Assembly: GCA_963765765.1 (NCBI GenBank) | Contig: CAVXYC010000019.1 | Location: 320,001 to 384,000 of the forward strand | Reading direction: 5' to 3' | Origin: an uncultured Chloroflexia bacterium | Lineage (GTDB): Bacteria > Chloroflexota > UBA6077 > JACCZL01 | Length of the DNA stretch: 64,000 bases | Shown: positions 5,485-27,073 of the stretch, one piece after another | How the letters are laid out: the number at the start of each line of letters is the position of its first letter | Position numbering within the stretch: position 1 is the first letter of the stretch | The notes under the pieces: generated by a model | What the model was told of the DNA's origin: nothing | Seen by the model: the letters and a program-made list of their open reading frames with translations, nothing else | The model's database searches: none | Position numbers and translations under genes: made by a program

Positions 5485-5511
5485 TGTCACAAATTTCGAG
5501 CCTGTCTCGTC
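5485..5511 (+). promoter_or_regulatory. ECF41 (SigJ)-dependent promoter
   Basis: TGTCACA-N16-CGTC, the established ECF41 consensus, directly upstream of the epimerase-membrane protein-sigJ operon. Confidence 0.85.
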
Positions 5512-5538
5512 TCAGGTTCAAGATGGGAGGACAGAACG

Positions 5539-6510
5539 ATGAAGGTCATGATCGCGGGATCCACTGGAGTGCTCGGTCGCAGAGCTGTCCAGCAGTTTTC
5601 GGCGCGCGGCGATACCGTCTACGGACTGACTCGAAGCGATGACGGCGCGCAGCGAGTCCGGGCATTGGGCGGCGTTGCAGTGGGTGCTGACCTCTTCGAT
5701 GCCGAGGCTATGGCGCGGGCAGTTGAGCACGTTGATGTGGTGGTCCACGCAGCTACGGCCATCCCGAGCAAGACGCGTACCTCAGCGGCGGATTGGGCGG
5801 CCAATGACCGCATCCGAAGGGAAGGCACGGTCGCTCTTACACGGTACGCCTCGCTGGTTGGAGCTCAGCAGTACATCCAGCAAAGCATCACCTGGGTCGC
5901 AAGGCCCGATGACGGGGCCTTCTATGACGAAAGCTCGCCGAATCATCCGTCGCCTGTCACGCAGTCCGCGCTCGATGGCGAGACTATTGCTCAGAATGCG
6001 GGTGAGATCTACGGTTTCAAAGCATCAATCCTACGCTTCGGCTATTTCTACAGCGCCGACTCAGCGCACACTCGACAAATTAGGGATGGCCTCCTGTCTC
6101 GCCGGATGCCGATCATCGGTCGAGGCGACGCGTTGATCAGCAATATCCACGTGGATGACGCGGCGAGCGCCATTGTTGCGAGCGCGGATTCAGGACTTGG
6201 TGGTCTGTGGCACGTAGTGGATGATCAACCCACTTCCGTCGCGAGTCTCTTCGCCACCCTGGCCCAAAAACTAGGCGCTCCCACGCCGGCGCATATCCCC
6301 GTGTGGCTGGCGCGGCTCCTCGTGGGACGTACGACTGTTGACTTGCTCACCATCTCATCCGAGACGTCCAATTCACTCTTCAAGCGAGACACTAAATGGA
6401 ATCCAACGTACGCCACGATTGATTCCGGTCTGGATCAGCTCGTCGCCGCCTGGCGCAACGAAGGGACTTTGCCTCAGCTTGCGCCGAAGACGCTTCGTCG
6501 AGCTGCCTGA
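5539..6510 (+). CDS. NAD-dependent epimerase/dehydratase family protein
   Basis: MKVMIAGSTGVLG Rossmann motif, VVVHAATAIP, LRFGYFY, IHVDDAASA; RBS gggagg. Confidence 0.9.
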   Translation: MKVMIAGSTGVLGRRAVQQFSARGDTVYGLTRSDDGAQRVRALGGVAVGADLFDAEAMARAVEHVDVVVHAATAIPSKTRTSAADWAANDRIRREGTVALTRYASLVGAQQYIQQSITWVARPDDGAFYDESSPNHPSPVTQSALDGETIAQNAGEIYGFKASILRFGYFYSADSAHTRQIRDGLLSRRMPIIGRGDALISNIHVDDAASAIVASADSGLGGLWHVVDDQPTSVASLFATLAQKLGAPTPAHIPVWLARLLVGRTTVDLLTISSETSNSLFKRDTKWNPTYATIDSGLDQLVAAWRNEGTLPQLAPKTLRRAA

Positions 6511-6515
6511 AAGTA

Positions 6516-6977
6516 ATGGGTATGAAGATGAACCGAGCTCAACAATTGCTGATCGGTGTTGTCATCATTCACGCCGTGGTGACAGGCCTCCATGCTGTGG
6601 CCCATACGCGAATTGACGTTTTAGCGACGGTGGAGCAAAGTGTGTTTATTGGTGCCGTGATCATTCTGGCACCCCTGATCGCGGCCGTGGGTCAGTTGAT
6701 GCGACGCGACGTACTCGCGGCGTCCACATTGTTCCTGTCAATGGTCGGCGCGGAAGTCTTTGGCGTGATCAACCATCTGCTTGTTCCGGGTGCTGACAAC
6801 ATCGCACAGGCGCCATCCGGCCTGTGGGGCAGTATGTTTGTCTGGTCGGCGGCCGCCCTCATGCTCGTGGAAGCCGCCGGTATCGTTGTTGGTGCGCTAG
6901 CGTTCGTGGCCAGCCGCCGAACGACGATGAATCAATCCGTGCACTCCGGCGTAGCCCAATCATCCTCACACGCATGA
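6516..6977 (+). CDS. Four-TM membrane protein, unknown function
   Basis: Four hydrophobic segments with His residues in TM1; operonic spacing. Confidence 0.7.
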   Translation: MGMKMNRAQQLLIGVVIIHAVVTGLHAVAHTRIDVLATVEQSVFIGAVIILAPLIAAVGQLMRRDVLAASTLFLSMVGAEVFGVINHLLVPGADNIAQAPSGLWGSMFVWSAAALMLVEAAGIVVGALAFVASRRTTMNQSVHSGVAQSSSHA

Positions 6978-7863
6978 CCGAATCAGTAGCGGAAAAGGCC
7001 AGCGTCTTCGATGCGTACCGTCCGCTGCTGTTCTCGGTTGCTTATCGAATGCTGGGCTCGGTCATGGATGCGGAGGATATGGTCCAGGAGACATTCTTGC
7101 GCTGGCAGCAGGCCAAGGGCTCAGCTCCCGAGTCCGAGCGTGCGTTCCTCACGACGATCGTGACCCGACTGTGCATCGACCACTTGCGCTCGGCGCGCGT
7201 CCGACGCGAGCAATACGTCGGCATGTGGTTGCCGGAGCCCCTCTTGACAGACGAGGATGCGGACCCGGCGGAGACGTCCGTACTCCAGGAGAGCATTTCA
7301 GTCGCGTTCCTGGTACTGCTGGAGGCGCTTGCCCCGGCTGAGCGGGCCTGCTTCCTGCTTCGCGAAGTCTTCGGGTACGACTATGCCGACATTGCTCGCA
7401 TTGTGGGTGTCACCGAAGAACATACCGGCAAATGGTCTCGCGAGCCCGCAAGCGCCTCGCTGAAGGTCGACCGCGCTTTGCAGCCTCCGCATCCGATCAT
7501 GAGCGCTTGACTGAGGAGTTTCGGAAAGCCTGCGCTGACGGAGACACGCGGGGCTTCCTGGCCATCCTGTCCGAAGATGTCACGATCTATGCGGACGGTG
7601 GAGGTAAAGCGTCGGCGGCGCAAAACCCAGTACACGGTCCGGACCGTGTGTCACGATTCTTTGTTGGGATTCTGCAGAAGGCTCCCCCCGGGCTGGCGAT
7701 TACACCCCGAATGATCAACGGTAGGCCGGGGCTGGTCACGACGCTCGGCACTCAAATCATCAACACGATCAGCTTCGAAATTCTCGACGGCAGGATTGAG
7801 AACATCTACATCGTCGTGAATCCGGACAAGCTTCACGCCATAGGTAAAAGCTTGGACGCATGA
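6974..7863 (+). CDS. sigJ: ECF41/SigJ-family RNA polymerase sigma factor with C-terminal SnoaL-like extension (frameshift near 7420)
   Basis: YRPLLFSVAYRMLGSVMDAEDMVQE, YVGMWLPEP, DGGGK and NPDKL signature motifs. Confidence 0.9.
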
Positions 7864-8148
7864 CGCTCCGCGCTCTCGGACCGCGGCGGTCTTCGCCGCT
7901 TTCCCAGGAGCGGAGCGACACCTTCATGACTTCCTTGCCATTCGGTTCGATCGGAAAGTGTCTTAAGTCAACCGACCCGGATCCCGTAATCCGAGCGATA
8001 TGGCCCAACGCATTTCCTGTTGCGGTGACGTAACACTTTCAGCGTGGATGGAATCCTCGCGCATGTACCGGTCCTGGGAGTGCTACACAGCCTGGCGTTA
8101 AGGTGGACCGAAGCGGCAAATAGCGTCACGGCCTAAGGGTGCCTCTGA

Positions 8149-8685
8149 CTACGATGTCTCGGCTTGCAATCGCGTCAGGATGAGATCAACTGCCGCGTTA
8201 AACGAGTCGACGCGGGCGTCAGCGTCATCGCAGCCACTGTACGGTCGGTCGATGAGGATGGAGAAACAGCCAGCCGCTTGTCCAGCACCGATGTCACGCC
8301 AGCGATCGCCAACAACGAACGAGGCTGACGGGTCAATGTCCCACTTGCTGGCGGCGTCCAGCAGCATCCCCGGGAGTGGTTTGCGGCAGTGGCAGATGCC
8401 ATCGCGTCCATGCGGGCAGACCAGGATGTCGTTCAATGGCACTTGAGCCTGGAGCTGAACGTGCATCTCATCCAGAACCTCCTGGGGCAAAAGTCCTCGG
8501 CCGATCTCCGGCTGGTTGGTGAAGACGATACAGATGAGACCCGCGTCCCGGAGTCGCTGCACTTGCGCGCTGGCATCCGGGTAGATGTCAAACTCGGCCA
8601 TGTTGATGGGCGCGAACGCCTGATTATCGCGAACGATCTCGCGCACGAGCACGCCGTCTCGATCTAGAAACGCTGCGCGGTTCAT
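8149..8685 (-). CDS. gmhB: HAD-IIIA phosphatase, D,D-heptose 1,7-bisphosphate phosphatase-like
   Basis: FLDRDGVL, TNQP, CPH...CHCRKPLPGML, VGDRWRDI. Confidence 0.8.
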   Translation of the reverse strand: MNRAAFLDRDGVLVREIVRDNQAFAPINMAEFDIYPDASAQVQRLRDAGLICIVFTNQPEIGRGLLPQEVLDEMHVQLQAQVPLNDILVCPHGRDGICHCRKPLPGMLLDAASKWDIDPSASFVVGDRWRDIGAGQAAGCFSILIDRPYSGCDDADARVDSFNAAVDLILTRLQAETS

Positions 8686-9040
8686 GATCTGGGAGATTCC
8701 TTCTTGGGGCCGTGATGCGGTCTTAGACCAGGCCGACTGCTTGGATCATCTTTCCGATTCAGACACAAACAGTTCTTCAGTTCCACCCAGCGGAATGCAG
8801 GTGGAGATGTCAAGCGAGGGGAGTAGGCGGAGCTGAAGGAAGCCAATTTAATTCAGGCGAAACGGCAAAGAAGCTGTCGGACTTGCAGGACGCGCCGACT
8901 CCAGGGGTAATGCTCCTGAAGCCAAAGAGTTAGCATCCGATGCCTCCCGTGGTGAGTCATAAGCTCACTAAGAGAAATCCTCAGAGCACGGGGAGGACAA
9001 GACACTCCCTGCTCAAAGTTCAAAGCCGCACAATCCCCTT

Positions 9041-9743
9041 TTACAGATTCCACATATATGACGACCGATAGATCGTTATCCCGTAATCACTCCAGTACCA
9101 TGGGCTCCACATAAGCATTTGATCTAACCCGTAGAGAGCGACTTGATGTAATTCGTTATAGACATCAGGGGTAATAAAGGTGCGGTAAGTCCAAGGGCGC
9201 AAGCTGGATAACTTTGCTGCGTAATTGGCAGAGCGACCAACCCAAACTAGGTCATTCGATCCCCGCACGCCTGTCCGAGCGACCAACAAGTTACTCGTAT
9301 CGATGCCCACCGCATGGTGGACTGTGTAGCTGATGCTCGGATACTGAACCTGTAGCCACGGATTGATGATTTGCAGCACACAGTAGTTGATGATCAGGGC
9401 CGATATCACAGCCCTCGAGTTCCTATGGGGGCCAATGTAGACCGCCATAACGCGATCGCCGTCATACGCGGTTATGACACCGTCGTGCGCCTCAATGGCT
9501 TTGGCAGCGCAGCGGAGGAGGCCTTGTAAATCTCGGCGGCGAATTAGGGGAGTATTGAGTAACAAGATTGGTTGACTCAGCCAGGTCAGCGTAGAGCACA
9601 GTGCCCTCTAGGAGTACAGCCTGGTTACCGAGGAGTTGGACGTTTTCGGTATTGGGGACCTTCAGGCCATTGCGTTTGTCCCAGTTAGTTTGGAAAATCG
9701 CACGTACTTCGGCATTCAGTTCATCAGCGATGTCATTGCACAT
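9041..9743 (-). CDS. pycC: Pycsar pyrimidine (uridylate) cyclase PycC-like class III cyclase; two single-base indels near 9520-9545
   Basis: Reconstructed MCNDIADELNAEVRAIFQTNW...TVLYADLAEST...FAAEIYKA.LRCAAKAI...ITAYDGDRVMAV...HAVGIDTS...RGSNDLVWVGRSANYAAKL; closely follows the Pycsar TIR effector. Confidence 0.88.
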
Positions 9744-9744
9744 C

Positions 9745-10648
9745 CTATTTGACGCCGCGATCAGCAACCAGGCTCCGCAATTGGGTGAAGACGGGTCCGA
9801 TTCGAGACGCGAGCGTGTCTGGCTGCCCATCGGAGTATTCGAGTGGCGTAATCCCTAGCAGATCTGTTGGCAAGGAGAGTAGCTCTCCCCGTGGTTGCAC
9901 GATAAAAGTATGGTCCTGACCAATGGCCCCCACAAAGAGTCCCAGCTCAAAGATGACATTGTCACGGGGCACATTTACGGTCTCGCCTCGTCGCTTCAGA
10001 ATGTCGTCAGGTCCGACAATGAAGATGGCGAAGTCAGCATCCTTAGCAATTTTGATAAGACTGGGAAGGGTGTATTCCGACGCCTGGAAGACGCCATCCG
10101 TCCACAGCTGGGTGACGAAATCATCGTGAGACAAACCGAGCTGAATAGCTTGTGCAATGGTTAGGCGCTCGCTTGCGCTTCCGATGAAGATACGAGGTTT
10201 TTCGTTTGGGACGTGGATGAAGCGCCCACGTTGACGAAGTCGCGCCGAAAGTTCAACGGCTAACCGTCGCCAGACGGTTGGGTACTGCGTTGCGACCTCG
10301 GAGAGCTGAGGTTCAGTCAGTTTCGCGACGACCGTTGTCTCTAGAGTCTTAACCGTAGCGCTAGCAGCCCCCGTGGATCGATTGCCGCCATTTCTCCGAC
10401 AGGGTGCCTGCGGGTCGGATGGCTACTGGAAGCCGTGGATCTCGACTCCGACGCTGCCCGCCAGGATGAGATAGACGTCAGTTTCTGAGCTGTCCTGCTG
10501 TATGAGGGTGGTATCGGTCGGGAATTCGAGCAACTCACAAACGTCCCGACCCCTTTTGTAGCGGGCATGCTCCAAGTAGTGCTGTTTGGGAAACTAGTGC
10601 CTCAATGAGGCGGTCACGGGCTGCGGGGCCCTGGAATCGATCAATCAT
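9745..10648 (-). CDS. pycTIR: Pycsar effector PycTIR (cyclic-nucleotide-binding domain + TIR-like NADase), several frameshifts in the N-terminal half
   Basis: Reconstructed MIDRFQG...LIQQDSSETDVYLILAGSV...VGEMAAIDP...SATV (cNMP-binding) then NEKPRIFIGSASE...DFAIFIVGPDD...PRDNVIFELGLFVG...LPTDLLGIT (CAP12/Pycsar TIR). Confidence 0.88.
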
Positions 10649-10839
10649 GATCGGGTGGTGAGATCATTTCCAGAGGCAGTATACCGCTCGTGAATGTACT
10701 GTATGGCAATCGTTATTGCCTTATGCACAAGAATCAATGATGAGGTGAACCATCCAATTAGGTGCACTATACTCAATGATAGAAGCACTAAATGCCAATT
10801 ATTGAAGGAGTCAATCCTGTAACAAACAAACACTTGAAG

Positions 10840-11135
10840 ATGTCAGTTACTCAAGGAGCGCAAGGAGCTCAGGCTATTCCAGGACCTGGAGTCCCCAATG
10901 GAGGGACGATAGGTCAAGTCTTAAACAAAGCCTCCAATACAGATCTCGATACCGAGTAGGGCACATTCACCGTAGCACTGGAAAACATCCCTACAGGCAC
11001 CCCAGCTATCAACATCGGGACAGGGTCAGTTAACGACACGGGATTTGGGTTCCTGGATGGGGTTATCTTAGGTATCCAAGCCCACCTCGATGCCAAGGCC
11101 TCATCCTCCCACACCCAGGCTCACAGCTCTCTTAC
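10840..11135 (+). pseudogene. Decayed phage tail-fibre/collagen-like gene fragment
   Basis: QGAQGAQAIPGPGVPNGGTIGQVLNKASNTDLDTE*...FGFLDGVILGIQAHLDAKASSSHT; in-frame TAG at 10957-10959 where a Trp usually occurs. Confidence 0.6.
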
Positions 11136-11139
11136 CCTT

Positions 11140-11600
11140 CCCTCAGGGACAGCACCTGCAGGGACAGCACCTGCGCAACCAGGTGTTGCGCCCTCGGCCT
11201 GTACAGGCCGAGGCGATTTCCGTGGAGCCACCGCATCCAATGGGGGAGACGGCAGTGGTCCCCGATACGCCGCCTCCGACGAACTTCAGTGGGTTGATTG
11301 ACTCAGCCGTGGAGTCACCCGCGGAGCGGCTGATCGCGCAGCCAGCGGCTCAGGTGGGACCGCAGACCATACACTCGACTTCCCGAACATGCCTGGTTAC
11401 CAGAAGGCGGCGGCAATTGAACGGACCGCTCGTCAGCTCTCCGACGTGAGTAATGTGGACGTCCAGGAGTTCGAGCGAGGCCGACTCGTTCTCGAAGTTC
11501 AGATGGGTGATCCCAGCATGGCTGATCAGATGATTTCGCGCCGGCCGCGATGAACGTGGCCGATCGCTCACCGAACGCCATCACGTTCCAGCTTTCCTAG
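11140..11600 (+). pseudogene. 3' portion of a Pro-rich hypothetical protein lacking its 5' end (frameshifted)
   Basis: Pro-rich segment, then TLDFPNMPGYQKAAAIERTARQLSDVSNVDVQEFERGRLVLEVQM, ending TAG at 11600 and followed by a terminator; no clear start. Confidence 0.45.
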
Positions 11601-11614
11601 TCCCGCACAACGCT

Positions 11615-11661
11615 AATGAGCACGACCCGTAGGGTTAGTTCCCGCCGGTCGTGCTCATTTT
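11615..11661 (+). terminator. Rho-independent terminator
   Basis: aatgagcacgacc...ggtcgtgctcatt stem followed by T residues. Confidence 0.65.
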
Positions 11662-11741
11662 GGCGTACTACGTGCTAGTGTATCTCTAGAGCGGATGCTC
11701 GGGTGCCGATCACCCACACCAGGCATAGGGATGGAAGCGCT

Positions 11742-12131
11742 ATGAGTGAAGCTGAGTCTCGAAGTAAGCCTCGTGTTCTCGTTGTGGAGGATGACCTCGA
11801 TACTCGAGATCTGTTAACCCTTATCCTCGAGGATGAGGGTTATGCGGTGAATGCACTGGGTGACGGACGAAAGGTGGTCGAGCACGTCCGTCAAAATCGG
11901 CCGGACGTCATCACGTTGGATATAGGGCTGCCTGGAATGAGTGGCTCGGCCGTCCTGGACGACCTCGAGCGAGACCCTGTGACGGCGGGCATTCCGGTGA
12001 TCGTTATCTCTGGCCATACCCGCAAGCTAGGCGAGCCTGATCGAGAGCACGCGACGCGCGTGATCGCCAAGCCATTTTACATAACGCAAGTCGTGGACGA
12101 GATCGAGCGAGTCTTAGCGCGAGCGGACTAA
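11742..12131 (+). CDS. Single-domain response regulator
   Basis: VLVVEDD, PDVITLDIGLPGMSG, VIVISG, IAKPF. Confidence 0.9.
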   Translation: MSEAESRSKPRVLVVEDDLDTRDLLTLILEDEGYAVNALGDGRKVVEHVRQNRPDVITLDIGLPGMSGSAVLDDLERDPVTAGIPVIVISGHTRKLGEPDREHATRVIAKPFYITQVVDEIERVLARAD

Positions 12132-12139
12132 AGAGACTT

Positions 12140-12210
12140 CGGTGGGACAGGCATCTTGCCTGTCCAGTTCGACGCGTTCGGTGACGGAAGGCGAGACGCC
12201 TGTCCCACCG
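12140..12210. repeat. GTGG-type REP pair
   Basis: cggtgggacaggcatcttgcctgtc ... ggcgagacgcctgtcccaccg inverted arms between convergent genes. Confidence 0.75.
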
Positions 12211-12215
12211 TACAT

Positions 12216-13421
12216 CTAGATCACGTGTTCATCGCGAAGGTTCCTGATCTCGGCATCATCCATCCCGAGCTCGCTCCGAAGAATCTCCTCCGTATGCTCG
12301 CCAAGTAATGGAGGGGCGGTGCGACCGGTTGCGGGGGTTCTGTCCAATTTGTACGGCACCCCAGGAACTTCCAGGTCGCCGATAGTCGGATGGGGTAAGT
12401 GCATGCGCATCTGGCGGTGCAATACTTGAGGGTGGTTGAAGACCTGGTCCACACCAAGGATGGGCGCTGCCATAACCCCGGCAGCCAGTAGCCGCTGAAC
12501 CCAATCTTCGGAATCACGCGTCAAGAATGCCATCTGCAGGGCGGGGATCAGGTCGGTACGATTGACGACTCGGTCAGGATTCGTGCGGAATCGTGGGTCA
12601 AACGCGAGTTCTGGTAGACCAAGAACGGCACATAGATCAGCGAACTGACGATCATTGCCCGCGCCCGCAATGACGGCGCCGTCTCGAGTCGTGAAAAGCT
12701 GGTATGGCACCAGGTTGGGATGCGCATTCCCAAATCGCTCGGGCGGCTCCCCAGTCATCATGTATCCCGTGCCCACGTTGATCAAGAGGGCCACGATCGA
12801 TTCAAAGAGCGAGCACTCGACATGCTGGCCCTGGCCCGTGCGATCTCGATGGTGCAATGCTCCGAGCACCGCGGAACAGGCAAACATTCCGGTGGTGAGA
12901 TCGGCGAGCGGGAGTCCGGCCTTGAGCGGCTCACCATGGGGCGTGCCGGTGAGGCTCATGAGTCCACCCATCGCCTGCGCGGCGATGTCATATCCTGGCC
13001 TGTCGGAGTACGGGCCGTCAGCACCGAAACCGCTGATGGAGCAGAAGATCAACTCCGGCTGCCACTCGCGCACGGCGTTGTACCCGAACCCCAGCCGATC
13101 CAAAGTCCCTTGCTTAAAATTTTCGATGAGAATGTCGGTTTTGCCGATCAGGCTTCGTAGGATGGCTTGACCACGTGGCTCCTTGAGGTTGAGCGTGATG
13201 CTGCGCTTATTGCGATTGACCGAAAGGTAATAGGCGCTTTCACCACCTGCGAACGGCGGGCCCCATCTGCGGGTGTCATCCCCCGTCCCTGGCTGCTCGA
13301 CCTTGATCACGTCGGCGCCCATATCGCCCAGCATCATCGCGCAGTAAGGGCCGGCCAGAACGCGCGAGAGATCGAGAACGCGGATATTTCGGAGCGGTCC
13401 TTTGGCGTGCGGGTTTTCCAT
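12216..13421 (-). CDS. CaiB/BaiF class III CoA-transferase
   Basis: [59 protein letters not shown]. Confidence 0.95.
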
Positions 13422-13616
13422 GGCGGTCGGATTCTATGCCATGGTGGCACATGCATGGGCTTGGGCCCGCCGACATCCTGTCGGCCCGGCCCCCGAGGGC
13501 CGCCGGAGAGCACCCGAATATCGGTGGCTGATGATATCGCGGGAGACGCCTTGATCGACCGGGCCCACAGGATATCGGTGGTCGCATGCTGGTACGCTCA
13601 ACCTGCTGGAGGGCAC

Positions 13617-13946
13617 ATGCGGCTGACACCCCGTGAGACCGACCGCTTGACGATGTTCACCCTTGCCGAGCTGGCGCGACGCCATCGCGCGCGGGGCATC
13701 AAGCTCAATCATCCCGAGAGCATCGCCTTGATTTGTGATGAGATGCTGGAAGAAGCGCGCGCAGGCCGATCGTATAGCGAGGTATTAGCGCATGGACGCT
13801 CTGTTCTCCGTCGCGCTGACGTCATGGACGGTGTGCCTGAGATGATTCCTACGCTTCAAGTGGAAGCAATGTTCATTGATGGAACAAAGCTCTTAACGCT
13901 TCATCAGCCGATTGGCGATGCCCGAGCCGACAATGATTCCAGGTGA
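13617..13946 (+). CDS. ureA: Urease(-like) subunit gamma
   Basis: [11 protein letters not shown]...[14 protein letters not shown]...EARAG...[10 protein letters not shown]...[18 protein letters not shown]. Confidence 0.9.
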
Positions 13947-14304
13947 GGTGATATTCGGTTCGAAGGCCATTGAGTGCAACTCCGGCCTGAAACCATCGAG
14001 CTCGAGGCGACCAACCAGCTCGCGGTGGCCTATCCAGGTGTGCTCCGCATTACCACTTCTTCGAGGTGAATAGGCGGTTGCTGTTCGATCGCGCGAAGAC
14101 TTTCGGTTTGCGCGCTGGACGTGGTCGCAGGCGGCGGGGTGCGGTCGGAAGGCCGGGGAGACGAAGAGGGTACGACTCGTGCCGCTCCGCGGAGCTCGCG
14201 AAGCATGGGGGTTTAACGGTCTTGCATCTGGTCCCACGACCGCAGAGCGCCTTCCCGAGGCGCTCGATCGTGCCCGCGAGCGGGGCTTCTTGAGCGAGCT
14301 CTGA
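13933..14304 (+). CDS. ureB: Urease(-like) subunit beta, multiple frameshifts
   Basis: MIPGEV...PIQV...[19 protein letters not shown]...GETKRVRLV...GFNGL across frames. Confidence 0.8.
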
Positions 14305-14305
14305 C

Positions 14306-15994
14306 ATGCCATTCGAGATGGATCGGGGACTCTACCAGGGGTTGTATGGACCAACCGCCGGAGATCGCATTCGGCTGGCCGATACGAACTTGATGATCGA
14401 GATCGAGCGCGATGACGCCTCGTATGGCGACGAAGTCCTCGCCGGGTTCGGCAAGACGCAGCGAGATGGCATGCTAGCTACAAGTCGTGGCGGTCACGAT
14501 AGCGAGCTGGATCTGCTCATCAGCAACGTCGTGGTGCTCGATCCCGTGCTCGGGGTGCGGAAGACATCTATCGGGATCAAGGACGGACGGATCGTAGGAC
14601 TGGGGCGGGCGGGGAATCCGGACAACGTCGACGCAATCGATCTGATTGTCGGCTCGAACACCGGGCTCATTACGGCGGAAGGGCTCATTGCTACGGCTGG
14701 GACTGTGGACAGTCACGTGCATGTGGCCAGCACCAGTTTGATCGATGCCGCGCTTTCCGCAGGCACAACCACCCTCGTGGGCATGGGTTACGGGGGTGTG
14801 TGGGACCAGGGAGTCATGCCAGAACGAAATCTGGCCATGCTCCTGGCAGCATTCGAAAGTATTCCCATCAATGTCGCGCTCCTCGCGCGCGGCAGTAGCG
14901 TGGATCCTGGTGCCCTGGAACGAAATGTCCTCTCGGGCTGTGCTGGGTTCAAGATCCATGAGGATGTGGCCGGCTTCCCGGACGTTATCGACAATGCGCT
15001 CACGATTGCGGATCGATTCGATATCCCCGTGGCGCTGCACACCGACGGTCTGAACGAGTCGGGTGAGCTGTCTGACACGCTGGCGGCGATCAACGGACGC
15101 GCGGTGCATGCGTATCACGTGGAGGGCGCGGGCGGGGGACATCCGAATTTGCTGGAGATCGTGGGGGAGCCGCACATCCTGCCCTCTTCAACGACCCCGA
15201 CCGTGCCCTACACCGTGAGCACGGTCGCTGAGCACTTCGACATGATCATGACGGTGCATCGCCTGAGCAGGCTGCTCGACGAGGACGTTGCCGCTGTCCA
15301 GGCGCGCGTGCGGAGCGGAACCATCGCCGCGGAGAGCTTGCTGCACGATCTCGGCGCGATCAGCATCATGTCATCGGACTCACAAGGCATGGGACGCATC
15401 GGTGAGGTGGTGACGCGCACCTGGCAGACGGCGCATCGGATGAAGGAGCTGCGCGGTGGCGATGGCGAGCACGATAACGCGCGGGTGCTGCGCTATCTGG
15501 CGAAGTACACGCTCAATCCCGCCCGCGTACATGGGCTGGAGCGGCATGTCGGCTCGCTGGAGTCCGGGAAACTTGCGGACATCGTCCTGTGGCACCCAGC
15601 CTTCTTCGGCGTCAAGCCTCAGCTCGTGCTGAAGAGCGGCTTCGTTGCCTGGGGCTTCGTGGGTGATGGCAACGCGGCGATTCGCGTTGCCGAGCCGCTG
15701 ATCTATCGCCCGATGTTCGGCGCGCTCGGCCGAGCACCTGCCGAGCTCAGTGTGGCGTTCACCTCGCAGGCAGCGCTGGATTCGGGTTTACGCCGACGCC
15801 TGAACCTGACCAGGCAACTCGTCCCGTTGGGGCCGACCCGCGGCATTCGTAAATCGGACCTTGTGTTCAATGATGCGCTGCCGAACGTCGAAGTCGACCC
15901 GCGGTCGCCGCATCAGGTGACTGTCGATGGCGCGCTTGTGGATGTGCCGCCGGCCTCCGAGCTGCCAATGACGCAGAGGTATTTTGCTCTCTAA
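14306..15994 (+). CDS. ureC: Urease-like alpha subunit (divergent dinuclear amidohydrolase)
   Basis: YGPTAGDRIRLADT, DSHVH, KIHED, HTDGLNE, HVEGAGGGH, SSDSQGMGR, LPMTQRYF. Confidence 0.85.
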   Translation: MPFEMDRGLYQGLYGPTAGDRIRLADTNLMIEIERDDASYGDEVLAGFGKTQRDGMLATSRGGHDSELDLLISNVVVLDPVLGVRKTSIGIKDGRIVGLGRAGNPDNVDAIDLIVGSNTGLITAEGLIATAGTVDSHVHVASTSLIDAALSAGTTTLVGMGYGGVWDQGVMPERNLAMLLAAFESIPINVALLARGSSVDPGALERNVLSGCAGFKIHEDVAGFPDVIDNALTIADRFDIPVALHTDGLNESGELSDTLAAINGRAVHAYHVEGAGGGHPNLLEIVGEPHILPSSTTPTVPYTVSTVAEHFDMIMTVHRLSRLLDEDVAAVQARVRSGTIAAESLLHDLGAISIMSSDSQGMGRIGEVVTRTWQTAHRMKELRGGDGEHDNARVLRYLAKYTLNPARVHGLERHVGSLESGKLADIVLWHPAFFGVKPQLVLKSGFVAWGFVGDGNAAIRVAEPLIYRPMFGALGRAPAELSVAFTSQAALDSGLRRRLNLTRQLVPLGPTRGIRKSDLVFNDALPNVEVDPRSPHQVTVDGALVDVPPASELPMTQRYFAL

Positions 15995-18795: not shown

Positions 18796-21124
18796 CTAAG
18801 CTCTGGCCTGATGAATGACCTGCCAGACCCGCTCGTCGGCCGCCGGCATGTCGATCTCGTCCGCACCGAAAGGTCGAAGCGCATCGAGCACCGCGTTGCG
18901 CACGGCCGGTGTGGCGCCAATGGTGCTGGCCTCCCCGATGCCTTTGATGCCCATGGGATTGCGCGTAGTCGGCGTCTCCGTGCGATCCAACTCAAAACTC
19001 GGCAGGTTGTGTGCGGTTGGCATCGCGTAATCCATGAACGATCCCGTAACGAGCTGGCCAGTTTCGTCATAGATCACGCCCTCGAAGAGCGCCTGTCCGG
19101 CTCCCTGAGCGATGCCGCCATGCCGCTGACCATCTGCGAGAAGAGGATTCGAGCACTGGGCCGCAATCATCTACCGCGATGTGACGGCGGAGCGTTACTC
19201 GGCCAGTATCTGGGTCGATGTCCACGATGGCAATGTGAACGCCGAACGGGAACGTCTCTCCCTCCGGCGTGTAATGGTGCGTGGACTCGAGGCCATACTC
19301 CATGCCCTCGGGCATCTTTCCCCCGTAGGCGGCGGCAACGACGCGAGCCCAAGGCGTGCTCTTATCCGGTGCGCCGCGGACAGAGAACTCACCGTTGGCT
19401 AGCTCAACGTCATCCGGCGAGGCCTCCATGAGGTTCGCCGCGATCTTGATCATTTTCTCGCGCACATCCACGGATGCCTTGAGCAAAGCAGTGCCGCCGA
19501 GGATTGCGCTGCGACTGCCCATGGTGCCGACACCCGTGGCTACGAGTGCCGTATCCCCATGGATCACCTCAATCTGATCCATGGGGACAGTGAGCTCATC
19601 GGCGATGACCTGTGAGAACGTTGTTTCGTGACCCTGCCCGTGCGGCGAGCTTCCGGTAAGTGCCGTGACCTGTCCGCCGGCCTCCACTCGGATCGTCCCG
19701 CTCTCCCAGGGCCCAAAGCCGCACACCTCCACGTACGCGGCTACACCGATCCCCATAAGCTTGCCAGCCGCTCGGGCTCGCTCCTGTTCGGCGCGCAGCT
19801 CGGAGTACTTCGCCATCTCCAGGGCTTTGTCCAGAGCACGCTCATACTCGCCAGAATCGAACACGCGACCGCCGCATGCCTGGTAGGGGAATTGGTCTGG
19901 CTGGATGAAGTTCACCCGCCGCACCTCGGCCGGATCGAGTTCGAGATCGTGGGCGATGCGATCCATAAGGCATTCCATCAGGTAGATCGCCTCGGGACGC
20001 CCGGCGCCGCGATAGGCGCCGATGGGCGTTTTGTTTGTAAATGCTCCGACGAGATCAAATGAATGCACCGGAATGTCGTAGTTCCCGGGGAGCATCATGC
20101 CTGTGGTCATGCCGAATAGCGGCGTGATGTACTGGTAGTAGCCACCACAATCAAAGGTGACACGCACTTTCATGCCTCGAACGCGCCCATTGGCGTCCAC
20201 GGCGGCGTCCGCCTCCTGTACCTGGCCACGACCGTGCATGGCAGCCTGGAGATTCTCCCGCCGGTCCTCGACCCATTTCACCGGCCGCTCCAGCCGCATA
20301 CTCATGATGCACGCGAGCACTTCCTCAGGCGAGAGATCGATTTTGTTGCCAAAGCCGCCGCCCACCTCAGGGGCGATGACGCGTACCGAATGCTCGGGCA
20401 ACCCAAGCGCCGTTGCCATACGTGTCCGCAAAGAGTGCGGCGTCTGAGTTGATGACCACAGCGTGAGCTGACCGGCGCCCTTCATGACCTTTCGGAAGTC
20501 GGCCACACACCCCCGTGGCTCCATGGCCGCCGGAAGCAGACGTTGGTTGATGACGCGCGTCTTGACGATCTTGTGAGCACCGGCGAACGCGGCTTCCAGG
20601 TCGCCCGTCTCCCGGTGCTGCCGATGTCCCACGTTCGTGCCGAACTGTTCGTGAATGAGAGGCGCGCCATCTTTGATCGCTTCCTCGGGATCGACCACTG
20701 CGTCAAGCGGCTCGTAGTCAACCTCGATAAGCGCCAGCGCATCGCGGGCCGCCGCTCGTGAGTCGGCGATGACTCCGGCAATCGGATCGCCAACGTAGCG
20801 GACCTTGTCCGTTGCCAGGACGCGGCGCTCGGGAGACTTACCATCCTGAAAGGCAGCCATCGGAATAAGCACCGGCAACGGGCCCGTGATCGCGTCGTTC
20901 ACGTCTTCCGCGGTGACCACGGCCAGCACTCCCGGTGCAGCCTGCGCCGCGGTCGTGTCAATGCTGTTGATACGCGCGTGCGCATACGGACTGCGAAGGA
21001 CCCCGAGATACGTGGTCCCCGCAAGATGCAGATCGTCCACGTACGTAGCGCCACCCGTGATGAGCGTGGGATCTTCGCGGCGCTTGATCGGCGTCCCGAG
21101 CAGCCGGGGCTGAGTTACGGTCAT
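18796..21124 (-). CDS. Xanthine dehydrogenase-family molybdopterin-binding large subunit (CoxL form II-like); frameshift near 19160
   Basis: RREDPTLITG, LRSPYAHARI, VGGGFG, AYRGAGRPE, PHGQGHET, GTMGSRS, TGSFMDY, KGIGE. Confidence 0.9.
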
Positions 21125-21277: not shown

Positions 21278-22025
21278 ATGTACGATGGGTTTCAGGCTGA
21301 AACCACCACGATGGTGGGACACAACGGCGACGTGATTGCCGCCTATCTTGCGAAGCCATTGGGCGCGGGGCCGTTTCCCGCGGTGGCGGTGCTGCACCAT
21401 ATGCCCGGCTGGGATGAGCCTTCCAAGCTCATCTGTGCCAAGTTAGCGTTGCACGGCTACATCGCGCTCATGCCCAACCTGCATCATCGCACGGGTCCCG
21501 GAAGTCCTGACGATCAAGCAGCGGCCGTCCGCGCCGAGGGCGGAAATCCGGATGAGCAGATTCTGGGGGATCTCCGCGGGGCATTGAGGGTCATCAGCTT
21601 GATGACCACCTGGAATGGCAAGCAGGCGGTGATGGGATTTTGCTCGGGCGGACGGCAGACTTACCTGGCCGCGGGGCGCATTCCAGAGCTCGACGCCGCC
21701 GTGGATTGCTGGGGCGGTCGAGTGATCGCCGCGGCAGATACGCTCTCCGAGCGTCAGCCGGTAGCACCCATCGAATACACCAAAGACATCAACTGCCCGC
21801 TCATGGGCATCTTTGGCAATGACGACGCTGAGCCTGATCCGGAGCAGGTCAACAAGACCGAAGCAACACTCAAGGAGCACGGGAAGAACGTACGAGTTCC
21901 ATCGTTACGATGGCGCTGGGCACGGTTTCTTCGCGGTTGACCGACCTGGCTATCGTCCTGTCCAGGCTACAGATGCCTGGAGTAAGATTTTCTCGTTCTA
22001 CGAAAAATATCTACACACCTCGTAA
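21278..22025 (+). CDS. Dienelactone hydrolase family protein (frameshift near 21890)
   Basis: GFCSGG nucleophile motif, GIFGNDD, YDGAGHGFF. Confidence 0.9.
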
Positions 22026-25854: not shown

Positions 25855-27073
25855 ATGCTTACACAAGAAGCTAACCAACGCCTCGCCCAAGTAGGTCCCG
25901 GCACGGCCGGTGGCAACCTCCTACGGCGATACTGGCATCCAATAGCCACGGTCGTTGAGCTCGAGAAGGAGCCTGTCCTGGCGGTGAAGCTGCTGGGCGA
26001 GAATCTCGCGCTTTACAAGTCCCCAAATGGTGACCTCGGGCTCATGGCAGAACGCTGCCCGCATCGCGGCGCCAGCATGGTCTACGGGATCCCTGAGGAT
26101 GGCGGCTTGCGCTGTCCGTACCACGGTTGGAAGTTCTCCGAGGAAGGCGCGTGCTCTGGAGCAGCCGGCCGAGCCAGAGGACAGCACCTTCAAGCACCGA
26201 GTGCGCATTCCCGCTTACCCGGTCCAGGAGATGGGTGGGCTGATCTGGGCGTACCTCGGGCCCGCACCGGCGCCAATTCTCCCCAAGTTCGACCTTTTTG
26301 TTCGCGATGACATCAAGCGGTCCATCGGCATCACCGTGCTGCCGTGCAATTGGGTGCAGATGATGGAGAACTCGCTTGACCCTGTCCATCTCGAGTATCT
26401 CCACGGCATGCTGACGAATTACACGCTCAAGAAGCAGGGCAAGCCCCCGTCGGCGGCGGTGAAGCATCATCTCAAGATTGGCTTCGACGTGTGGAAGCAC
26501 GGTATCTCAAAGCGTCGCCTCCTGGAGGGTCAGGCCGAGGATTGCGACGATTGGACGCGCGGGCATCCGATCCTGTTTCCCAACATTCTGGCGGTGGGCG
26601 ACGAAAGCTGCCCTGAGTACCAGATCCGCGTTCCGATGGACGATACGACCACGCTCTACTACTGGTACAACACAAGCCCGTTGGGCCCCGGTGAGGAAGC
26701 TCAGAAGCCGACGGATATTCCGATCTGGGAGAACCCGTACCAGCACGACAATGGCCGTCTCGTGGTCGAGACTGTCAACGGCCAGGACATGATGGCGTTC
26801 CTGACGCAGGGGCCCATCTCTCTGCGCGAAGCCGAACGCCTGGGAACCTCGGATAAGGGCGTCATCCTGTTCCGCAGCGTCATGTTTGAGCAGATGGAGA
26901 GGGTAGCACGGGGCGAAGATCCGCTCGGTGTGCTACGCGATCCGGCGGAGGATGTGATCATTCGCATTCCGCGCGAGAACAAAGCGCACTACGTGGTGGG
27001 TGAGTTCATCGCCGCCGACGACGAGAACATGCCGGCCGCGATCAAGAAGGAATTTACGGGGATCACTCGGTAG
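25855..27073 (+). CDS. Rieske non-heme iron oxygenase alpha subunit (frameshift near 26150)
   Basis: VGPGTAGGNLLRRYWHP, CPHRG...CPYHGW, ENSLDPVHLEYLH, ERLGTSDKGVI. Confidence 0.92.

Follow-up and report, generated by a model that had tools for sequence, protein, structure and literature searches.

We analysed a stretch of 64,000 nucleotides (hereafter the window) from an uncultured Chloroflexia bacterium (assembly GCA_963765765.1, contig CAVXYC010000019.1, positions 320,001 to 384,000) that carries a urease-like ureA-ureB-ureC operon. It is well supported by sequence comparison that the ureC product belongs to a separate, conserved clade of the urease family. The distribution of accessory genes around this clade and in its host genomes further suggests that the protein is probably a working urease-family hydrolase that matures without the accessory proteins UreD, UreF and UreG.

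The locus is a translationally coupled operon in which the ureB ATG overlaps the ureA stop codon and the ureB stop codon lies 1 nt before the ureC start. Its features are as follows.

13608..13613, forward strand: Shine-Dalgarno-like GGAGGG, 3 nt upstream of the ureA start codon (direct sequence reading)
13617..13946, forward strand: ureA, urease gamma-type subunit of 109 aa, intact (open reading frame; Pfam PF00547 Urease_gamma, E 1.1e-39)
13934..14304, forward strand: ureB, urease beta-type subunit, with five frame changes from about 13988 to 14151 in the assembly (six-frame reading and frameshift-aware alignment)
14306..15994, forward strand: ureC-like alpha subunit of 562 aa, intact (Pfam Urease_alpha PF00449, E 1.7e-39, and Amidohydro_1 PF01979, E 2.2e-49)

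The ureA product scored 140.4 bits against NF009712 (cut-off 123) and shares 59–74% identity with the UreA of clade relatives and 61% with the canonical UreA of the same genome. A promoter and terminator scan of the window gave no signal above shuffles.

The alpha subunit and its clade

The ureC product passed the urease alpha model TIGR01792 narrowly (689.4 bits, cut-off 680) and fell below the cut-offs of three urease-alpha equivalog models (NF009685, 678.6 against 907; NF009834, 615.7 against 1001; NF010591, 603.6 against 1083). It exceeded that of the subfamily model NF009686 (757.5 against 354). Aligned with Klebsiella aerogenes urease (HMMER, E 9e-167), it has all six metal-ligand positions, in agreement with the initial annotation, which had described the dinuclear metal ligands as intact: H137 and H139 correspond to K. 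aerogenes H134 and H136, K216 to K217, H245 to H246, H271 to H272 and D358 to D360. The catalytic positions H218, D220 and H318 (K. aerogenes H219, D221 and H320) are also kept, as is the equivalent of Arg336 (R334/R336). We take His219, Asp221, the flap His320 and Arg336 to have the roles in catalysis or substrate binding that the urease literature gives them; by their titles, PDB entries exist for urease variants at K217, H219, D221, C319, H320 and H134.

The pocket around these residues is altered. The alignment places V317 opposite C319, R319 opposite H321, G361 opposite A363, and V221-A222 opposite W222-G223. All four canonical pocket motifs (GGGTGP..TPG, HEDWG, MVCHH and SQAMGR) are replaced, through a remodelled loop at residues 160–172, in which the GTGPAAGTHATTCTPG loop is three residues shorter than in K. 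aerogenes urease, and a flap MTVHR at residues 315–319. The translation reads DSHVH, KIHEDVA, HTDG, HVEG, SSDSQGMGR, GMGYGGVWDQGVMP, MTVHR, AGFGK and NAAIRVAEP; every pocket change listed in the initial annotation is there, and most are kept across the clade described below.

An AlphaFold2 model built from 78 sequences (predicted local distance difference test, pLDDT, 90.4; a 14-sequence run was poor, at 58.5, and was discarded) matched solved urease alpha chains with template modelling (TM) scores of 0.93–0.95 at 44–48% identity, and no solved urease was closer. By this model the alpha subunit has the urease fold. The next structural matches of the model were hydantoinase, allantoinase and dihydroorotase (TM 0.45–0.48), which share the two-metal ligand scheme with a carbamylated lysine, at only 16–18% identity; gamma and beta subunits are absent from them. 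These enzymes are not known to need dedicated chaperones to build their metal centres.

Among the 120 relatives listed by a protein search, identity to the window UreC was 56–92%, above that of the canonical copy in the same genome; their source names include Chloroflexota metagenome-assembled genomes (MAGs), Nitrolancea, Thermomicrobium and Pseudonocardia. We retrieved 80 loci from named genomes with peptide patterns that favour the clade of the window and built a tree of 93 UreC rows (IQ-TREE quick search, LG+G4). It comprised these loci, less the truncated row L079, the window, the canonical copy on contig C11 of the same genome, and 12 of the 20 full-length representatives of a library clustered at 50%, the other eight being degenerate or very long-branched. 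A split with a Shimodaira-Hasegawa-like approximate likelihood ratio (SH-aLRT) support of 99 set 56 non-canonical rows apart from the other 37, which are canonical group A, group B and a small remainder. Inside the 56-row branch, the window fell within a clade of 35 rows (SH-aLRT 97) whose titles name Thermomicrobia/Chloroflexota or Actinomycetota (Pseudonocardia, Kineococcus, Streptosporangiaceae, Acidimicrobiaceae). The proposal of a paralogue clade that is not nested among canonical ureases is thereby upheld.

The 35 rows of this clade all carry the six ligands together with H218, D220, H318, R334, R336 and M362. The same is true of D167, G169, V170 and P172 in the new loop and of G361, while V317 is kept in 34 rows and R319 in 33. 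The ratio of nonsynonymous to synonymous substitution rates (dN/dS) was 0.012–0.316 across 12 pairs within the clade. The clade thus evolves under purifying selection, and the altered pocket, conserved across it, is a selected state and not the product of decay.

Full-length urease-alpha-like proteins at 34–44% identity, with several ligands lost, were found among the library representatives (P0134, P0141, P0143, P0151, P0152, P0160, P0164, P0191 and P0215) and are likely non-catalytic relatives. The loss of ligands in the first five of these distant representatives could be taken to mean that the window protein is itself urease-like and non-catalytic, but the retention of ligand and catalytic positions in every clade row makes that reading extremely improbable.

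Several further observations concern the clade and its surroundings in the tree. A sister clade from Dehalococcoidia MAGs (L052–L055, L060, L062 and L063) lies on the same branch and differs again at these sites: its loop is cut back much further (GAG------LNTTGR), it reads HEDEG, and its flap is QVHN/S. Its ligands are kept, no accessory genes lie nearby, and one carrier, a record titled 'chromosome', is without ureG. In five Actinomycetota loci the gamma and beta subunits are fused, and in a few loci other genes stand between ureB and ureC. Binning or labelling problems are likely in two cases (L049 and L022): a Kineococcus-like ureC of the clade sits on a contig assigned to Janthinobacterium lividum, and genome G015, although titled 'Proteobacteria bacterium', belongs by its grouping to the order of the window's genome.

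We found no description of the clade in the literature searched, which covered few subscription journals, so earlier work may exist. In PMC7365893, a table row gives 'Urea degradation: no' for four Nitrolancea genomes, which may or may not carry the clade gene. The 'orphan urease' of PMC2667541 refers to two marine animals, and PMC10753782 was set aside as having no relevance to the clade.

Accessory genes and maturation

The absence of accessory genes from the operon extends across the whole non-canonical branch. Searching flanks of up to 10 kb per side (less at contig ends) by tblastn with the UreF, UreG and UreD of this genome, we found ureF, ureG or ureD beside none of the 51 non-canonical-branch loci, compared with 29 of 30 canonical loci. 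A whole-genome search for ureG with the TIGR00101 model in 14 clade-bearing genomes divided them as follows.

No ureG over the cut-off (nine genomes): G015 (100% complete), G003 (86%), G004 (80%), G193, G254, G315 and G322 (one genus, 99% each), Thermalbibacter longus (an isolate) and one MAG record titled 'chromosome'
ureG over the cut-off or in two adjacent pieces (five genomes): G000, G002, G005, Pseudonocardia spinosispora and Kineococcus rubinsiae

The nine genomes represent four or more genera, with two further genomes left unassigned, and for three of the nine (G015, G315 and G044) even a threshold of E ≤ 0.001 yielded no match to the UreG model. In G000, G002 and G005 the ureG that was found adjoins a canonical ureC. 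These counts favour the suggestion in the initial annotation that the protein may follow another maturation route.

The genome of the window is one of those with a canonical system. Its contig C11 carries urea-type ATP-binding cassette transporter genes, ureA, ureB, ureC, ureF, ureG and ureD (locus L006, G000:C11:30000-46000, at about 5500–13600). The motifs of this urease are fully canonical (GGGTGPADGTRATTCTPGP, HEDWG, MVCHH, SQAMGR), and its UreC is only 49–50% identical to that of the window. The C11 operon has one frame break each in ureB, ureC (near the N-terminus) and ureG. By tblastn of the whole genome, no ureF, ureG or ureD was found beyond the C11 set, and none on the contig of the window. 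The initial annotation was thus right that no accessory genes adjoin the operon; the genome-wide search it proposed turned up both a canonical ureC and ureF, ureG and ureD elsewhere, and it had mentioned neither this operon nor the broken ureB.

With one ureFGD set in the genome and the TIGR01792 cut-off just passed, the window protein might simply be a further nickel urease of the usual kind that receives its metal in trans from the C11-encoded UreF, UreG and UreD. We consider this unlikely, given that nine of the 14 clade-bearing genomes show no ureG over the cut-off, three of them without any match to its model, and that accessory genes are missing beside all loci of the branch.

Maturation without the known accessory genes has precedents. 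The second urease homologue of Helicobacter mustelae, UreA2B2, is active without accessory proteins and with a metal other than nickel. Bacillus subtilis has a weakly active urease with canonical active-site motifs, encoded by ureABC in a genome that is not known to carry ureDEFG. The H. mustelae iron urease (PDB 3QGA; E 5.4e-163, TM 0.93) resembles the window protein in being a second homologue in its genome. It differs in being a two-subunit Helicobacter-type enzyme of a host-adapted pathogen, and at 45% identity it lies outside the clade. The pocket motifs of UreA2B2 are presumably canonical.

Canonical nickel UreABC enzymes (K. aerogenes 2KAU, Sporosarcina pasteurii, Helicobacter pylori and jack bean) share with the clade the three-subunit order, the alpha-subunit fold at the TM scores given above, the six ligands and the equivalents of His219, Asp221, His320 and Arg336. 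The clade departs from them in an alpha subunit that is 44–48% identical, in the shortening of GGGTGP..TPG to G[MQ]GxGxV-WDLGVNP, in the replacement of HEDWG by HED[VFST][AG], MVCHH by xVHR and SQAMGR by SQGMGR, and in having no adjoining ureD, ureF or ureG, with most host genomes lacking any. Group B ureases (GGSLGPI--TVGIDxGG, SQGMGR, SAASLMTCEP) have the shortened loop and the Ala-to-Gly change in SQxMGR in common with the clade, but keep HEDWG and MVCHH, have ureF/G/D in the flanks of 20 of 21 loci, and fall on the canonical side of the tree. Their 21 loci (including L059, L064, L066, L070, L074, L076, L077 and L098) have the order ureF-ureA-ureB-ureC-ureG-ureD and come from Alphaproteobacteria, Burkholderiales, a Mycolicibacterium, a Domibacillus and some Dehalococcoidia.

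In a hydrolase that matures without accessory proteins, the two-metal centre bridged by a lysine carbamate would form without nickel delivery by UreDFG, the metal being loaded spontaneously or being other than nickel. The centre would activate water for attack on the carbonyl (or imino) carbon of a very small planar ureido-type substrate, and the flap histidine H318 would act as the general acid.

Frame changes in ureB

The initial annotation named a ureABC operon. Its ureA and ureC are intact, whereas ureB has no open frame in the assembly, its pieces being spread over three frames in a six-frame reading. Frameshift-aware alignment with the UreB of G015 and G004 located the changes near 13988, 14016, 14047, 14114 and 14145–14151. 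They comprise single extra bases near the last three positions and a compensating pair near 13988/14016, for a net shift of zero. All five fall within 164 nt of ureB, compared with none in the 2016 nt of ureA and ureC.

We regard these breaks as most likely errors of the assembly. The essential rpoB of the same assembly reads in three frames and, against the RpoB of G005, contains single extra bases at about C20:327786, 327614 and 327268. These three insertions span about 520 nt and jointly restore the frame. A cell could not live with about 170 RpoB residues out of frame, and insertion errors seem to be locally clustered in this assembly. A contig of about 92% identity from an independent public run (X2, record 10) covers 14016–14298 with 21 mismatches and is exactly one base shorter at each of 14047, 14114 and 14150. 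The public runs compared were all DNA contigs with patchy cover, no RNA run being listed, and no contig spans 13980–14015; a metagenome scan did not recover the DNA of the relatives that are 91–92% identical. At the other clade loci, the UreB match was single and unbroken in 31 of the 31 where it was found (of 34 examined; one of these matches is cut by a contig end). The organism itself therefore probably encodes a complete enzyme.

Elsewhere in the window, a CoxL/xanthine-dehydrogenase-like gene (18796–21124, reverse strand) and a Rieske oxygenase gene (25855–27073, forward strand) each run over two overlapping frames, and a dienelactone-hydrolase-like reading frame (21278–21940, forward strand) has an odd end. 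All three were noted by eye and are probably further assembly indels.

The alternative is a decaying operon, in which the ureB breaks are genuine and ureA and ureC are being lost as well. In its favour stand the five frame changes themselves and the window loop, WDQGVMP, which departs at two positions from the clade consensus WDLGVNP. Against this stand the unbroken ureA and ureC, the same error signature in rpoB, and a bias of differences towards third codon positions when the window is compared with the contigs of relatives (8 of 11 in the 3' part of ureB and 15 of 20 in ureC). Furthermore, metagenome proteins 91–92% identical to the window UreC carry the same loop. We therefore judge decay to be very unlikely.

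Some points nevertheless weigh against a working enzyme that matures without accessory proteins. We infer its activity, metal and substrate alike. The genomes without ureG are not all independent, as four of the nine share a genus, and two are only 80–86% complete. Very divergent UreF or UreD could escape tblastn with queries from this genome, although the well-conserved UreG is unlikely to do so. As C11 encodes UreF, UreG and UreD, loading in trans is possible in this organism. Canonical ureases are under-sampled because the peptide patterns used for retrieval favour the clade. Finally, the ureB breaks could be real: the X2 contig comes from a relative and not from the same strain, and it does not cover the changes near 13988 and 14016.

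Substrate, neighbouring genes and significance

Urea is the leading candidate for the physiological substrate, at a little under an even chance. All residues needed for urea hydrolysis are kept, and in many genomes the clade gene is the sole urease homologue. On the other side, at least three genomes also carry a canonical operon, the altered pocket is conserved, and a urea transporter was not found: the urea-binding protein UrtA was over the cut-off in none of five clade-only genomes. A different small amide, ureido or guanidino compound is only slightly less probable than urea.

We weighed in particular, as a possible though tentative reading, that the clade has turned to a new substrate such as a substituted urea, a carbamate, another small amide or a cationic urea analogue like guanidine. 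The clade gene coexists with a complete canonical operon in G000, G002 and G005, which suggests a non-redundant role. The conserved changes line the pocket, and sister clades show still other versions of this loop and flap, a pattern seen in families with diversifying substrates; the UrtA result points the same way. In the HMMER alignment, the invariant Asp167 stands opposite K. aerogenes Ala167, with W/S166 alongside. The backbone of K. aerogenes Ala167 contacts urea, and with a carboxylate at or next to this position, as Asp167 would supply, the pocket could prefer a cationic analogue such as guanidine. The gap in the loop is placed differently by MAFFT and HMMER, however, so the equivalence is uncertain by a few residues and serves as a lead only.

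The retention of all urea-hydrolysis residues argues against a new substrate. The initial annotation had based its case for a substrate shift on the pocket changes; these are present, but the loop deletion and the A363G change (SQGMGR) also occur in group B ureases with accessory genes, and to that extent the argument loses force. Rfam searches found no riboswitch or credible RNA near the operon or in eight loci of relatives. A single 5_ureB_sRNA match was rejected as coding similarity, as it sits within the ureC coding sequence.

Conserved neighbours do not indicate a new substrate either. Clustering of the open reading frames of 44 loci (37 of clade C and seven of clade D) showed only ureA, ureB and ureC to be conserved. 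The genes that recur are one resembling citrate synthase (nine loci), DUF1989 (six) and a receiver-domain protein (four, including the window). The DUF1989 gene lies beside the clade ureC or a few kb from it in six Thermomicrobia-type loci (L028:5384-6085, L040:11724-12362, L032, L034, L031 and L046) and counts in favour of a new substrate; the family is linked to systems of urea carboxylase and carboxyguanidine deiminase.

In the window itself, the operon has the following gene at its side.

12216-13421: family III CoA-transferase, divergent from the operon (domain search)

This gene had been correctly noted in the initial annotation as a divergent class III CoA-transferase. The other neighbours encode a glyoxalase-fold protein, a bicupin, an RraA-like protein and the CoxL-like protein, and apart from one short receiver-domain match none has a counterpart at the loci of relatives. 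Catabolic genes lie nearby, as had been observed, but this context is not conserved, and for that reason we rejected the aromatic-catabolism neighbours as a clue to the substrate.

A single-domain response-regulator receiver protein is encoded upstream of the operon (11703–12131, forward strand), and similar proteins are found upstream of ureA in the Thermomicrobia-type loci L037, L039 and L041. At L048, L051 and L058, a gene of the peptidase C45/acyl-CoA:6-APA acyltransferase family lies immediately upstream of ureC, and in two of the three it divides ureC from ureA and ureB.

In a broader and more doubtful version, the clade and the wider 56-row branch would be chaperone-independent, possibly nickel-free hydrolases of other small ureido or guanidino compounds, and not ureases. 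Cultured carriers make the question directly testable: Thermalbibacter longus, in which ureG was not found, and Pseudonocardia spinosispora and Kineococcus rubinsiae, in which it is present.

The gene ureC is a widely used marker of ureolysis, and annotation pipelines name the proteins of this clade 'urease subunit alpha'. In a large conserved branch that lacks nickel-loading genes and has a remodelled pocket, the metal, the maturation route or the substrate may differ from those of canonical ureases, and any such difference would bear on how a urease metal centre can form without UreDFG. The result would also alter the nitrogen-cycling capacity deduced from soil and hot-spring metagenomes. 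If the branch does consist of enzymes other than ureases, ureolysis is overestimated where Chloroflexota and Actinomycetota from soil and hot springs receive 'ureC' calls, and these calls conceal unknown reactions of the nitrogen cycle.

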